64,000 nucleotides of DNA, taken from the NCBI GenBank assembly GCA_049840735.1, contig JASGJN010000026.1, positions 320,001 to 384,000 on the forward strand, given 5' to 3'. Made by a program: the position numbers and the translations under genes. This document shows positions 25,243-32,777 of the stretch, one piece after another; position 1 is the stretch's first letter; every line of letters begins with the position of its first letter. The stretch is from Anaeromyxobacter sp. (GTDB taxonomy: Bacteria > Myxococcota > Myxococcia > Myxococcales > Anaeromyxobacteraceae). The notes below the pieces were generated by a model. That model made no database searches. It had not been told where the DNA came from and worked only from the letters and a program-made list of their open reading frames with translations.

Positions 25243-26625
25243 ATGTCGCGGGCCGAGCTGGAAACGGTGCCACTCGAGATCGACACGCTGGTGGAGGCGC
25301 TGGATCAGGAGCGCGCGCGGTCGATCGCCGGGGTGGAGAGCGACCCAGGGCTCGTACGGCTGTATGCCGCCCACTCCAGGGTGGCCCACCGCCAGACGGT
25401 GACCGACCTGCGCGAGGCCGGGCAGGCGGCGCTGGCCGCCCGGGTGGCGGCGCTGCGGGCGGAGCGCGCCGCGGCCGAGCACGAGGAGCGCTGGCGGGCG
25501 CTGGAGGCGGCGGCGCACCAGCCGGGGCCGGACGGCGACGCGCCGCTGGCCGCGCTGGAGCTGGCGGTGCTGCGCGAGCCGGACCGGACCCGCCGGCTGG
25601 CGCTGGCGCGGGCCGCGGCGGACGCGCTGGAGCCGGCCGCGGCGGCGCGCGAGGCGGCGGTGGAGGCGCGCGCCCGGGCCGGCGCCGAGGTGGGCCTGGC
25701 GCCGGACTGGCGGGCGGTGGTGGAGGGCGACCAGCTGCTCGCGGCCAGCGACGACGCCTGGCGCGAGGTGCTCGGCTTCCGCGCCCGCCACGACCTGGGG
25801 CTGGCGCCGTCGCCGGGCGGGGACCTCACCCGCGGCGACCTGCTCTTCCTGCTGACGCTCTCGCGCTGGGACGGGCTGTTCCGCCCGGCGGCGCTGCGGG
25901 CCGCCGTCCACGCCACCGTCACCGCGCTGGGGCTGGACCTCTCCCGCCTCCGCATCGACGAGGGGACGCGCCCGGCGCAGTGGCCGGGGGTGCACGTGGT
26001 GGGCGCGCGGGTGGCCTGGCGCCCGCGGGGCGGGGCCGGGGACTGGCAGGACCTGCTGGCCGGCCTGCCGCGCGCGCTGGCCGCGACCCATGCCTCGCCG
26101 CACCGGCGCGAGCCGCTGCTGGGCCACGCGCTGGGGTGGCTGGTGGAGTCGCTGCTGCTCGAGCCGCGCTGGCTGGCGGACCACGCCGGCGTGGAGCGCA
26201 AGGTGGCGCCGGACCTGATCCGCGACCTGGCGCTGCGGCGCCTGTTCACGCTGCGTGCGCGGGCGGCCGCCTTCCGGATCGCGACCGAGGTGGAGCGCGG
26301 GCTCTCCGGCGCCGCCTGGCGCGAGGCCTACCGCGAGGCGCTCACCGCCGCCACCGGCGCGGCCTGGGAGGGCGTGCGCGCCGCGCGCGACGCGGACGGC
26401 GCGGCGCACGCCGCGGCGCTGGCCGGGGCGGGCGCCGGCGAAGCGCTCCGCCTGGCGGTGCGCGAGCAGCTGGACGAGGACTGGTGGCGCAACCCGCGGA
26501 CCGCCGCGTTCCTGGCCGGCCTGCTGGCCGGCGGCGCGCTGCCGGACCCTGAAGCCGGCGCGCCGCGCGAGCCGGCGCTGGCGGCGCAGGCCCTCGCGGC
26601 GAGGCTGGAGGGGAGCGCTCGCTAA
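25243..26625 (+). CDS. Hypothetical protein, probably a degenerate M3/oligoendopeptidase-like fold
   Basis: DEDWWRNPR motif and GG..DW..LL segment without HExxH; stop TAA formed at the element junction. Confidence 0.6.
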   Translation: MSRAELETVPLEIDTLVEALDQERARSIAGVESDPGLVRLYAAHSRVAHRQTVTDLREAGQAALAARVAALRAERAAAEHEERWRALEAAAHQPGPDGDAPLAALELAVLREPDRTRRLALARAAADALEPAAAAREAAVEARARAGAEVGLAPDWRAVVEGDQLLAASDDAWREVLGFRARHDLGLAPSPGGDLTRGDLLFLLTLSRWDGLFRPAALRAAVHATVTALGLDLSRLRIDEGTRPAQWPGVHVVGARVAWRPRGGAGDWQDLLAGLPRALAATHASPHRREPLLGHALGWLVESLLLEPRWLADHAGVERKVAPDLIRDLALRRLFTLRARAAAFRIATEVERGLSGAAWREAYREALTAATGAAWEGVRAARDADGAAHAAALAGAGAGEALRLAVREQLDEDWWRNPRTAAFLAGLLAGGALPDPEAGAPREPALAAQALAARLEGSAR

Positions 26626-28606
26626 GAGTTGTCCCACAATTCGCCAATCGGCGAAGCGTGGGCCGGGTCGGTTCGCCATCGGGCCCGCTCGGGCGTGGTC
26701 TGGCCGGAGCCAGCCTCATCCCGGGTTGGGCCCGTGGCCGTGCCGACGATTCGCCGAGCCACCGGTTTGCTTGCCGGTGTGGACGTCCGCCATGCGAAGG
26801 ACGGCTCGCGGGCGAAGAGGTCGGTTGACTCGGACCGGACGTCTTGCCGCCCGGGACAGCGAGGATCAAGAAGGTTTCCGATGGCGGCGCGGGCCTGCCG
26901 GGTGGCGTCGTAGTCGACGCGCGCCGTGGCTGGCTCGCCGGGCCGATCGAGGACGAGGAAGGCGCCGAGGACCGCGGAGACGGCGTCCCTGTCCCCTTCC
27001 AGCCCGCAGCGAGGGCAGCGGTGGACCCGGTCGGCGAGCGACTTCTCGACCCGGACGCCGCAGGGGCAGTGCTGGGAGAGGGCGGTGGTCTGCGTGGGGA
27101 TCCTGACCACGCCGCCAACGTTGCCAGCGACGGTTGCGGTGGCACGCGCCTCCCGGTCGATAGCCGCGAGCAGCGTCCCCGGCGTGAACGTGGCCACCCC
27201 GCGCCCCCAGGTGCGCGCCCAGGCGGTGATGGTCACGTCCTCGACGGCGAGCTGATAGCCGTGAGTGCGTACCACCTCGGCGGCGACCTGCCGGGCCCGG
27301 TCGCGCCGGGCCTGCGTCCACGACGACGCAGCGGCAGCCTGCTCAGCCCGGAGGAAGCGGTAGCGCTTCGAGAGCGTGTCCCGCCGGTAGGCCTGAAGCG
27401 GGACGCCGTCCGACCGCGCCAGCCGCGGGCCTCCAGGGATCACCTCGACCGGCGTGAGGCCGGCGGCGGCCCGCCGGCGGGCGCGCTTCTCCTGGCGCCT
27501 GGAGAGCCGGTACTGGGCCCGGTTCGCGGCCCGGCGCGACCGCTCCAGGGCCCGCTGCCTGCGCCGCTCACGGCGACTGCGGCCTCGGTCCCGCGCCTTG
27601 GCCTGACCGTCTAGCTCCACCCTGGTGAGCCGCAGGTCGCCCCCAGCCACCTGGGAGGCGATGGTCAGGTTGGACACGTTGACGTCTATCCCCGCCACGC
27701 GCTCCGCCTCGTCGTTGGCCGCAGCTTCCCGCCGTGCCTGCGCCGAAGGCGAGACGTACGGCTGGGCGAGGACCATCAGATGCGCCTCGTACCGCCAGCC
27801 ACCGGGCGCATGAGGCGACCGCGTACGCACCAGGTCGACCTTGTGCCAGCGGGCCGGGTCGGCCAGGTGATGGTCGAGGATGGGCTGGTTGCACGGCGCG
27901 GTGGGGAGGCGAACCGGCAGGACCAGGGCGCCTCCGGGGAGGCCGCTGAAGAGACCAGCGCCAGAGGCCCCTGATAGGACCACCAGTCAACGCGCCGATC
28001 GGCGGCCCCCGGGACCTGGAGGTGCCGCGGCTGGACGAAGTCGCCGCCGGGCCTGGTGTACCTGCCCCGGTGGCCTGCGAGGGAGCCGTGGAGCCGAAAG
28101 GTCTCCCATTTCCGCTCCCGGGTGTGTGACCGGGCCCGGCCAGGAAGCCGTGAGAAGTCGAACCAGCGCCCGACGCGGAGAAGTCCCTGCCGCTTGCCTT
28201 TCGCGTCCGGGAACAGGTGGCGCTCCACCGGCGTCCAGACCGAGTCGGCGAGGTGCATCGCCAGCGCCTTGGTGACGTTCCGGCGGAGGTGGGGCGCCGC
28301 GTCGAGGTGCGCGTAGGCCGCCTGCTCCAGCGCCTCGCGCGAGAGGCCGAGCCTGGCCCGGGTCTCGGAGGCGCTCCGGGCCCGCGCCTTCGTCGCCGCC
28401 CAGTAGGCCCGCACCCGGTCCCGCGCCGTCCGCTGGAGCGCGCGCCGGACCTGGTAGGCCCCGGAGAAGATACCTTCGAGCCGTCGTCGCTGCACCGGGT
28501 CGTGGAGGTCCAGGGCGAGCCGGAGCACCGACACCCCGTCCTCGCGCCGGCGGATCCAAGGCCGCTGCCGGTTCGGACCACGGGTTCGCTTGGCAGAGGC
28601 GCTCAC
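26622..28606 (-). CDS. tnpB: Large TnpB-like RuvC/zinc-ribbon nuclease (~660 aa); apparent frameshift at ~27951
   Basis: RuvC-I VAGIDVN, Arg-rich helix, RuvC-II LAVED, SQHCPCG..HRCPRCG zinc ribbon, RuvC-III DRDAVSA; N-half in ORF 27776..28753 joins at GPLALV|FSGLPGG. Confidence 0.85.
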
Positions 28607-28940
28607 CCGCTCATCGTGAACCCATGCCCTGACATCTTGTTCAGTGAGGGTTGGCTTCCGCCGGTGGCCCGGGAAACGAGGCCACCGTGTTGTCCTCGCC
28701 GATGGCGGATACCGGGGAGTCCTGGGTCTTCGTATCCCGGTCTTCCGCCACAACCGGGTCGTCCGCGACGCCGCCTGGCGCCGTCACCGCAAACAGCGCG
28801 CCCGGGTCGAGCACGTCCTCGCTCGCCTCAAAGACTGGCGCGTCCTCCGGGACCACCGGCGGCGGGGGCGACACCTCGGATCCACGGTCGCCGCCGTGGC
28901 CTTCCTCTACAACCTCAAGCTCGAATTTCGGGACAGCTCC
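26625..28940. mobile_element. Non-autonomous IS5-family-derived element carrying a large TnpB-like nuclease
   Basis: TIRs AGAGTTGTCCCACAATTCG (26625-26643) and CGAATTTCGGGACAGCTCC (28922-28940), 15/19 inverted identity; flanking TA at 26623-24 and 28941-42. Confidence 0.8.
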
Positions 28941-28943
28941 TAG
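28644..28943 (+). pseudogene. C-terminal fragment of an IS5-family DDE transposase (DDE_Tnp_4, Harbinger-like)
   Basis: VLADGGYRG, HRKQRARVEHVLARLKDWRVLRD and AFLYNL motifs; runs through the right TIR; N-terminal half absent. Confidence 0.8.
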
Positions 28944-29284
28944 CTCTTCTTCCGCAGCGCCCGGAGGATCTTCTCCTTCGTGCGGGAGGGCTGCGGGGCG
29001 GCGCGGCGCGCGACCGGCGCCGGGGCGGCCTCGGCCTGCGCCTCGCGGCGGCGCAGGAAGGCCTCGATCTCGTAGGAGAGCAGCTCGATCTCGAGGTCGC
29101 TGCGGGGCGGCGCGGCCCGCTCCAGCGGCGCCGCGCGCGGCAGCGCAGCGCCCAGGCGCATGCGCATCACGCGCTCCTCGTCCGCGGCCAGCTCCCGGAC
29201 CGGACCGCGCCGGAGCGCGGCCTGGGCGGCTGCCTCCGTCACGACCGCGGTGGTCCCCGTCTTCTTCGTCTGCATGGTCCACAT
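28940..29284 (-). CDS. Hypothetical protein
   Basis: Host-like ORF (EERVMRMRLG...KEKILRALRKKS); stop at the element junction. Confidence 0.7.
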   Translation of the reverse strand: MWTMQTKKTGTTAVVTEAAAQAALRRGPVRELAADEERVMRMRLGAALPRAAPLERAAPPRSDLEIELLSYEIEAFLRRREAQAEAAPAPVARRAAPQPSRTKEKILRALRKKS

Positions 29285-29520
29285 GGTAGGGGCCAGGGCT
29301 GACCTGTCCATTTTTCGCCGGCCCGCGACCGCGTCCCGCCCGGGCGGCCAAGCGCCCGTCCGGCAAGGGCTTTCCGTCTCACCCGGCCGGCGGCGATATC
29401 ACACACCCGTCCCCGGCCGATGTCTTGCGGGGCGGCTCGTCGGCGGTAAGGCTCCAGGGCGGCGGGGCCCGCCTGGCAGCGCGGCTGCCGGGCCGCGCAC
29501 CGCGGCGGGAGGCGCGATCC

Positions 29521-31442: not shown

Positions 31443-31523
31443 CCCTCAGGGGAAACCACTCTTCGGGGCGCGGCGCAACTTCGGGCCATGCGTCCCGCAA
31501 GGGGGCGGCGGGGTCGGCGCCTG

Positions 31524-31901
31524 CCCTTCGACTCCGCGGGCCCTGCGGGCCCGCTACGCTCAGGGCGAACGGATCCCCTGTCGCCGTTCGTCCTGAGCGT
31601 AGCGCCCGCTCAGCGGGCGCGGAGTCGAAGGACAGGCCACCACCGCCAGGGCGAACGGTCCGCCAGTCCTCCGTTCCTCCTGAGCGTAGCGCCCGCTCGG
31701 CGGGCGCGGAGTCGAAGGACAGGCCACCACCGCCAGGGCGAACGGTCCGCCTGTCTCCGTTCGTCCTGAGCGTAGCGCCCGCTCGGCGGGCGCGGAGTCG
31801 AAGGACAGGCCACCACCGCCCGGGCGAACGGATCCGCCTGTCCTCCGTTCGTCCTGAGCGTAGCGCCCGCTCAGCGGGCGCGGAGTCGAAGGACAGGCCA
31901 C
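31524..31901. repeat. REP-like cluster: one inverted copy plus four tandem 86-88 bp units
   Basis: Units starting ccgttc(g/c)tcctgagcgtagcgcccgc at 31584, 31671, 31757 and 31845; inverted copy at 31524-31572. Confidence 0.9.
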
Positions 31902-31905
31902 CTCG

Positions 31906-32777
31906 CTACGGATTCCCCAGCCCCAGGTCCGGCGACTCTGCCCCGGTGCTGCCGCGCGGCGGCGGCGCGGTGTCGGACGTGGAGCCTGTCGGGCTCGCGT
32001 CGCTCCCGCTCCCGGTCCCGGCGCTGGGCGCCGGCGGCGGCGGGGCGGGCGTCCCGGCGCCGCTCCCGGTGCCGCTGGTCGCGTCCCCGGTGGCGGTGCT
32101 GCCGGGCGCGGCGGCGGGCTGCTCCACGCGGGCCTGGGCGGTGCGCCAGTCGGCCTGGGCCTGCTGCGCCAGGTGCAGCGTCTCGCGCGCCTTGGCGTCG
32201 GCCTGCTCGGCGTCCTTGCGGGCGTCGGCGACGTGCGCGTCGAACGGGGCCGGGTCGTACTTCGTGGCGGCCGGGATGCCGGCCTGCGAGAGGGCTTGGA
32301 GCTTGGAGCGCTCCAGCTCCGCCTCGGCCGAGCGCACGCGCGCCTGGGCCGCGTCCACCTCGGCCTGGCGCGCGTCGATCAGCTGCTTGGCGTAGGCGCG
32401 ATGGGTCTCGGCCAGGCGGGTCCGCGCCTGCGCCGACTGGATGGCCTCCTGGGCGACGGCGCGGGCCTGGGGATCGGCCGAGTCCTCCGCCGCCTTGCGC
32501 GACGTGTCGGCCCGGAGCTGCGCGGCGCGGGCGGTGGTGTCGTCGGCGCGGGCCAGGTCGGCCTCGCGCCTGGCCTGCTGCAGGCGCAGCGAGGCGCGGG
32601 CCACCTCGTCGTGGGCGGCGGCGAGGTTGTCGCGGGCCGAGTCCACCGGCCCATCTGATCGGGCGAGAGCCGGCCGAAGTCGGCCTCGGAGATGGGCTTG
32701 AAGTCGCTCTTCTGCTGGCCCGCGCAGGCGGTGGCGGCCAGCGCAATCACGGTCAGTGCGCGTCGCGTCGTGGACAT
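31906..32777 (-). CDS. Coiled-coil lipoprotein; apparent frameshift at ~32650
   Basis: Lipobox AATAC in ORF 32379..32810 joins the Ala-rich helical ORF 31906..32646. Confidence 0.7.

Follow-up and report, generated by a model that had tools for sequence, protein, structure and literature searches.

A covarying RNA structure at the nuclease end of an IS5-type transposon in Anaeromyxobacter, a probable omegaRNA scaffold

The window analysed here, a stretch of 64,000 nucleotides (nt) of the Anaeromyxobacter sp. contig JASGJN010000026.1 (positions 320,001 to 384,000), contains at its positions 26625-28940 an IS5-type DDE cut-and-paste transposon which carries a gene for a TnpB-type nuclease. Judged from sequence comparison, the minus-strand segment 26855-26622 at one end of this element is a 234-nt RNA scaffold which is conserved and covarying across relatives. 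It overlaps the last ~77 codons of tnpB, the inverted repeat, the adjoining TA and one flanking G. We regard it as highly probable that this structured 3' end represents the guide RNA (omegaRNA) scaffold of the element's TnpB of about 660 amino acids (aa). A preliminary description of the window had proposed an omegaRNA overlapping the 3' end of tnpB, and the conserved covarying structure, the synonymous constraint, the sharp boundary at the element end and the TnpB-type partner all speak for this proposal; its extent of ~280 nt, however, shrinks to about 234 nt, both by synonymous constraint and by a covariance model. An omegaRNA as such is an expected feature of TnpB, and what is described here is its setting in an IS5-type cut-and-paste transposon; because this biology is expected and the copy in the window is damaged, the surprise is limited.

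The segment 26855-26622 folds with z = -4.7 on the minus strand, and none of 200 shuffled sequences folds as well. The plus strand folds nearly as well (z = -4.1), therefore folding energy cannot choose the strand. Relatives were found as nine loci in genome contigs and as 80 loci kept out of 90 from metagenomes. For the comparison 55 ends were aligned, namely the window and 54 of the 58 ends remaining after removal of nine near-identical ones; three copies from the same genome and the distant locus L081 are left out of this alignment. RNAalifold predicts 46 pairs in it, 32 of them with double changes. In a home-made approximation of R-scape (G-test with average-product correction, compared with 40 alignments simulated on the tree), six pairs stand out from the tree null at E<0.05: 26722-26691, 26712-26701, 26745-26669, 26849-26840, 26805-26798 and 26729-26685. 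Each is 95-100% paired and lies in a different helix, and all are compatible with Watson-Crick pairing. In a 66-pair structure 91.1% of the cells pair, compared to 82.0% after shuffling and 31-42% with the partners slid along the alignment, figures which favour the structure since it was derived from the same alignment. The terminal hairpin on the repeat side varies freely in sequence and still folds at z<-2 in 46 of the 55 relatives. G-U occurs in 245 cells and A-C in 83, an excess which favours the tnpB strand and argues for RNA. A long-range pair, 26823-26634 (49 CG, 4 UA), was rejected as shared ancestry (E 131, no neighbouring pairs).

About ten helices are kept in the last 234 nt, which end exactly at T-T-A-G. 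On the minus strand the scaffold starts with the 5' hairpin P1 (26836-26853), with 97% of the cells paired, double changes in three of six pairs, and 26849-26840 as the pair beyond the tree null. It is followed by a domain (26753-26835) which is closed by P2 (26835-26828 with 26759-26753; 100% paired and nearly invariant) and encloses the variable hairpins P4 and P5, the P4 pair 26805-26798 exceeding the tree null. The nested stack P6-P9 (26667-26747) has one such pair in each helix and is 89-99.5% paired. It consists of P6 (26747-43 with 26671-67), P7 (26738-28 with 26686-75), P8 (26723-20 with 26693-90) and P9 (26713-09 with 26704-00). The 3' part is a terminal hairpin (26630-26662, z = -3.0 in the window) which includes the stem 26640-26655 and part of the inverted repeat. 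The stems of the preliminary description are all present where it had placed them (26640-26655, 26680-86/26728-34 and 26700-13). Its outer stem corresponds to P7 and its inner hairpin to P9, and both hold a pair beyond the tree null (26729-26685 and 26712-26701, respectively). The comparison of homolog 3' ends which it had suggested, including the building of a covariance model from them, thus found structure that is conserved and covarying.

This covariance model (R1) was built from 36 ends and run on 46 sources. The window scores 203.7 bits as a training row, and held-out close members with an intact scaffold reach 189-250 bits. The model further finds ten distant loci at 21-101 bits and 51-65% identity, nine of them end to end, four of the ten being named actinobacterial plasmids. 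In the model-fitted alignment of these loci P1 (6/6 pairs) and P8 are fully paired in all ten, P5 is not, and neither are P6 and P7 in the two mycobacterial loci. A search of Rfam with 26600-26900 gave no match, even when E values up to 5 were admitted.

The same region stands out in the coding sequence. In 44 full in-frame genes the differences at four-fold sites amount to 0.42-0.56 along the gene but to 0.20-0.29 over its last ~85 codons, and in this part the three codon positions come to resemble one another. The protein tail encoded here had been called low-complexity, which does not hold: its entropy is 3.75 bits, compared to 3.41-3.84 bits in the rest of the protein. The structure could also be a cis element of the tnpB message, acting in stability, processing or termination, or a feature of the DNA end, and would then not be loaded with a guide. 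The repeat-side hairpin could indeed serve in DNA or in RNA, and in 47 of 55 relatives the reading frame stays open as far as the terminal TAG, all indels being in frame. However, a fold of many helices which is kept across phyla with invariant unpaired motifs, and which ends at the boundary between nuclease gene and element, far exceeds a terminator, and a terminator scan calls no terminator-like site there. Furthermore, fold and end motif persist in five distant loci (L081, L084, L152-L154) in which translation ends ahead of the TAG, the excess of G-U over A-C argues for RNA, and a copy on contig C22 of the same genome which has lost most of the scaffold nevertheless retains both ends. We therefore consider such a cis element quite improbable.

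The element with the probable omegaRNA scaffold is bounded by inverted repeats (26625-26643 and 28922-28940) which are identical in 15 of 19 bases, with a TA outside each end, so that the terminal inverted repeat of the preliminary description is real. Inside the element tnpB (minus strand, 26622-28606, ~660 codons with an approximate start; Pfam Cas12f1-like_TNB above cut-off) lies head-to-head with the remnant of an IS5-family DDE transposase (plus strand, 28644-28943, the C-terminal 99 codons; Pfam DDE_Tnp_1 above cut-off). The tnpB reading frame crosses the whole RNA region and ends at a TAG on the element end. A full-length transposase of the relative L004 matches HTH_Tnp_4 and DDE_Tnp_4 above cut-off, and its best NCBIfam match is transpos_IS5_4 (E 4e-14, below cut-off). 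By its transposase type the element belongs to the IS5 family, and from the domain make-up of the transposase (~270 aa, HTH_Tnp_4 plus DDE_Tnp_4) we take it to be a member of the ISL2 subgroup. Membership in the IS200/IS605 or IS607 families is ruled out by the DDE transposase, the inverted repeats and the TA at both ends. A promoter scan found none inside the element. In the family the frames of nuclease and transposase usually extend into the inverted repeats and are closed by a TAG to which the target contributes, and 100 of 120 homolog proteins end in D-x-S.

Going by its residues, the protein is a TnpB-type RuvC nuclease with an active site that is intact across the family. The D-E-D triad and four zinc cysteines are invariant in all 120 listed homologs, and the catalytic glutamate lies about 58 residues before the first zinc-finger cysteine, which is the canonical position. 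A Fanzor or pro-Fanzor identity was rejected, because their RuvC-II glutamate has shifted to a place about six residues ahead of the zinc finger. The NCBIfam profile guided_TnpB is matched below its cut-off (E 6e-10, 39 bits against a cut-off of 100) and the IS607 TnpB model only weakly (E 2e-5, far below cut-off). A PDB sequence search gave a single weak match (8iaz_A, E 0.06). The protein is ~250 aa longer than the TnpB of ISDra2 (660 versus 408 aa), and its N-terminal half matches no Pfam family.

Where the element ends and the host DNA begins was compared in 67 distinct insertions, which at the RNA end read C-T, then T-A (A in 66 of 67) and then G in all 67. The information content falls from 2.0 bits at this flanking G to 0.07 bits at the next base and lies at 0.01-0.47 bits beyond. 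At the transposase end the base before the TA is C in 35 of 35. Because G is constant after the TA at the one end and C is constant before it at the other, the target can be read as C-TA-G. All 35 elements in which both ends were scored have the TA on either side, but it was required by the search pattern. Within a set of 75 RNA ends chosen by scaffold match all read TTAG. Their terminal two bases are invariant (75/75), whereas those at the transposase end vary in 7 of 35 (first base) and 5 of 35 (second base); Fisher's p of 2e-4 for the first base is overstated by kinship, though the variants occur in several branches. A target duplication of three bases was rejected, since the ends read TTA and CTA in most elements. 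Two remnants read CTAG, one at C16:38043 (L011 near 3043) and one at L145:1501-1662, and a newer copy has inserted into the CTAG of the former.

Position and pairing of the end motif suggest where the scaffold ends. A near-invariant UGAG inside the P8 loop (26715-26718, minus strand) is the predicted pseudoknot partner of the invariant CUUA at 26626-26623. Its U, G and A are invariant in 55 of 55 ends and the last G is kept in 53, the U being fixed although it occupies a synonymous position in G+C-rich genes. Over the 55 ends UGAG and CUUA are 99.5% paired, and in the ten distant loci all four pairs form in four, three of four in two and two of four in two, with two loci unaligned. The pseudoknot of ISDra2 is formed by bases -5 to -3, position -2 being non-canonical (PMC10097598). 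This register fits if the flanking G is base -1, which would place the guide start at 26621 and make CTAG the target-adjacent motif (TAM). The scaffolds of IS607 and Fanzor systems include a flanking base or the target duplication (PMC10711439; PMC13565253). By this analogy the scaffold here probably extends over the TA and the G that follows it. The predicted host-derived guide (26605-26621, minus strand) would then comprise ~16-17 nt antisense to the last codons of a host gene; it is marked by the drop in conservation, and its start and length are set by analogy. The preliminary description had also derived the guide from the flank, and the variable flank behind a sharp boundary agrees with this; the start it had chosen, with the TA, is likely to be moved to 26621. 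Its longer TAM taken from the other flank is discarded, as upstream of the TA only the C is constant (35/35).

Provided that the structure is a guide RNA scaffold, we favour the CTAG register with some reserve. An omegaRNA in another register is possible but distinctly less probable: the scaffold could end at the TA, with a guide from the G and a TAM of CTA, or at the element boundary, with a guide from the UAG and a target consisting of the joint with both TA copies. Such a joint is the default product of cut-and-paste excision. The scaffolds of IS200/IS605 elements do end at the element boundary (PMC10711439), and a palindromic target of the transposase explains the invariant G equally well, given the invariant C opposite (35/35). 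However, with an end at the boundary the bases which would have to form the pseudoknot are variable (columns 389-391), whereas C-U-U-A-G and U-G-A-G are invariant or nearly so; in the distant loci it is the A-U and G-C pairs of the proposed register which persist, and flanking bases are scaffold in IS607 and Fanzor systems (PMC10711439).

The element of the window separates two convergently placed host genes without Pfam match. Gene A (25243-26625, plus strand) is convergent with tnpB and would supply the guide, and gene B (28940-29311, minus strand), which has its TAG stop at the element end, would supply the predicted TAM side. At one junction the TA provides the stop of gene A and at the other that of gene B. 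At the RNA end (26623-26624) it is presumably one half of a target duplication; there it makes up the TAA stop of gene A with 26625 and, read on the minus strand, contributes to the TAG stop of TnpB. The terminal inverted repeat at the transposase end plus its TA occupies 28922-28942 (minus strand), with C-TA-G spanning the junction. Homologs of gene A are present in most genomes of the genus searched, and gene B shows by eye a short helix-turn-helix-like stretch. In 11 of 19 relative loci examined the two genes adjoin without an element, with 15-174 bases between the matched flanks.

CTAG is a rare sequence in this genome: 1415 occurrences compare with 15836 expected from base content, an ~11-fold under-representation, and with 6392 expected from a second-order model; TTAG (445) and CTAA (446) are rarer still. 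The flanks on the guide side resemble convergent gene ends in 38-42 of 60-66 cases, compared to 20-25% of the CTAG sites of this genome. Against the other flank the orientation bias gives p 0.03-0.17 unpaired and p 0.15-0.55 paired over three window sizes, in a crude coding test with a background from one genome. That the RNA end faces the 3' ends of host genes is thus only suggestive. Guides which are often antisense to host gene ends would also fit an RNA that guides a TnpB which does not cut, but binds in order to repress genes or to steer the transposase, and the long N-terminal half without Pfam family might be seen in the same light. Yet the catalytic residues of the protein are all three invariant in the 120 listed homologs, the insertion sites have nothing but CTAG in common and bear no relation to each other's guides, and for the six guides of the window's own genome (G000) no CTAG-adjacent match with fewer than three mismatches in 16 exists elsewhere in that genome. 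A non-cutting TnpB therefore appears very improbable to us.

For IS200/IS605 elements it has been reported that element-free alleles are cut so that repair restores the element (bioRxiv 2023.03.14.532601), and by analogy this is the likely role of the system described here. Transcription would pass through tnpB and out of the element, and TnpB would bind the 3' part of the RNA, in which CUUA would pair with the internal UGAG into the usual pseudoknot and the flanking G would be the last scaffold base. The complex would cut CTAG followed by the guide sequence. The element-free allele reads this way, whether it is a donor after clean repair, a sister copy or newly incoming, and with an occupied copy as repair template the element would be restored or spread. 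An occupied site has TTAG in front of the guide match and would escape cutting. The invariant T at the RNA end may serve the pseudoknot, self-protection or both. The RNA of the window would rely on the TnpB of a copy on contig C20, whose frame is open.

Taken together, this would be a homing bacterial cut-and-paste transposon whose RNA-end repeat is read in four ways: as transposase site, as part of the pseudoknot, as last codons and stop of the nuclease, and as rescue of the host stop. Three host bases would complete the scaffold, the TAM would be the whole palindrome CTAG, and T versus C would separate the occupied from the empty site. As a joint claim we put this forward tentatively, with somewhat less than even confidence. 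If true, the rarity of CTAG (about ten times below expectation) and its frequent position on stop codons would mean a harmless landing, with a guide aimed at the conserved gene ends of incoming empty alleles.

Several points weigh against these interpretations. The null model of the covariation test is only approximate, being home-made with 40 simulations. The pseudoknot lacks covariation as its columns do not vary, and the two distant loci in which just two of its four pairs form are mycobacterial. Since 47 of 55 relatives keep the frame open up to the TAG, the protein tail must also be under selection, unlike the dispensable tail of ISDra2, and part of the tail conservation may be at the protein level. 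Two scaffold-less remnants, which lie outside the set of 75, have C and not T at their RNA-type end. A joint which keeps both TA copies would not carry the predicted TAM, so the donor would have to regenerate a single CTAG. No base-exact empty allele was found among the relative loci; given the spacer of 15-174 bases in the relatives, the site in the window may have lost its spacer, possibly by a deletion beside the element, and the reconstructed empty allele may never have existed. Finally, as assembled, the nuclease gene of the window is frameshifted and the transposase truncated. The frameshift consists of two extra bases near 27950 compared to the C20 copy and is the only frame-changing gap; unless it is an assembly error, the RNA of the window could act only with TnpB from another copy.

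That TnpB occurs with DDE transposases is known. Altae-Tran et al. (2023) described six such branches with inverted repeats (DDE-1 to DDE-6; PMC10691335), and a 2026 review names ISL2, IS630 and IS1031 among them (PMC13565253). Our family resembles these branches in having TnpB beside a DDE transposase, inverted repeats, a gene 3' end close to the element end and a presumed omegaRNA (PMC10691335). In the text compared, which gives no RNA fold, TAM or CTAG target for an IS5/ISL2 branch, the branches are known by computation; figure 4 or the additional files of that paper may already show this family. Our literature search, which left most subscription papers outside its coverage, found no omegaRNA fold or TAM described for an IS5/ISL2-linked TnpB, nor any experiment on a TnpB guide RNA in this kind of transposon. 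A TnpB with an ISL2-type transposase is therefore already reported, and for this RNA fold and TAM we found no description in the literature searched.

With the ISDra2 TnpB of the IS200/IS605 family the system shares an RNA which overlaps both the 3' end of tnpB and the element end (~230 nt before processing in ISDra2), a predicted 3' pseudoknot, a guide from the flank, and a D-E-D triad with zinc finger (PMC10097598). In place of the Y1 transposase and the hairpin ends of ISDra2 it has a DDE transposase, inverted repeats and a TA at either end; its protein measures 660 instead of 408 aa, with a frame open to the last base, and the predicted TAM is the palindrome CTAG instead of TTGAT. Like in the TnpB of IS607 elements (ISXfa1) and in Fanzors of cut-and-paste transposons, the scaffold would include a flanking base or the target duplication, and the Fanzor RNA, as here, overlaps the inverted repeat (PMC10711439, PMC10530073, PMC10432273). 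Unlike Fanzors, the system is bacterial, has the glutamate in its canonical position and is predicted to keep the pseudoknot, whereas Fanzor1 has lost it. IS5 insertion sequences of the ISL2 group have the same type of transposase (~270 aa, HTH_Tnp_4 plus DDE_Tnp_4), short inverted repeats and a TA-centred target, but not the extra 2-kb RNA-guided nuclease module head-to-head with the transposase.

Why transposons that break DNA keep an RNA-guided nuclease is called unsettled in the 2026 review (PMC13565253). The family could serve as a test case for this, as it comes with a 234-nt scaffold and covariance model, exact ends, a predicted TAM and guide start, and a prediction that one base separates self from non-self; relatives have nuclease and transposase genes with open frames. 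A TnpB of 660 aa with a rare palindromic TAM would further enlarge the tool set.

Five further copies are present in the same genome, on contigs C20, C16, C22, C2 and C13. The tnpB frame is open on C20, and the C-terminal part of the window's TnpB is 86% identical to the C20 protein. The copies on C16 and C22 are internally deleted and that on C2 is decayed. A mini-element of 551 bp (C13:617629-618180; L014:2129-2680) has both inverted repeats and the last 269 bases with the full scaffold (206.6 bits), and carries a piece of the transposase and no nuclease, which makes it a candidate supplier of guides for TnpB in trans. Outside this genome, matches were found in 5 of 401 genomes of a phylum sample, and 950 proteins were obtained among 8000 candidates. 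Searches at E up to 1e-30 gave 218 clusters, and five plasmid records come from Actinomycetota. Four plasmid regions were retrieved; in each of the three that carry annotation the genes are again arranged head-to-head, and a convergent gene directly follows tnpB. The transposase is encoded on the opposite strand in 33 of 35 two-ended elements and is near full length in one frame in 13. Among viral contigs 53 pattern matches contained no relative. On a Mycobacterium plasmid an IS607 element with its own TnpB (L153:5164-6704) lies less than 800 bases from an IS5-TnpB element.

Elsewhere in the window, between two genes at 31512-31919, there are four direct repeats of ~87 bases with strong internal inverted symmetry. 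They have just weak Rfam matches, far below the gathering score, and by their appearance we take them to be similar to repetitive extragenic palindromic (REP) sequences.

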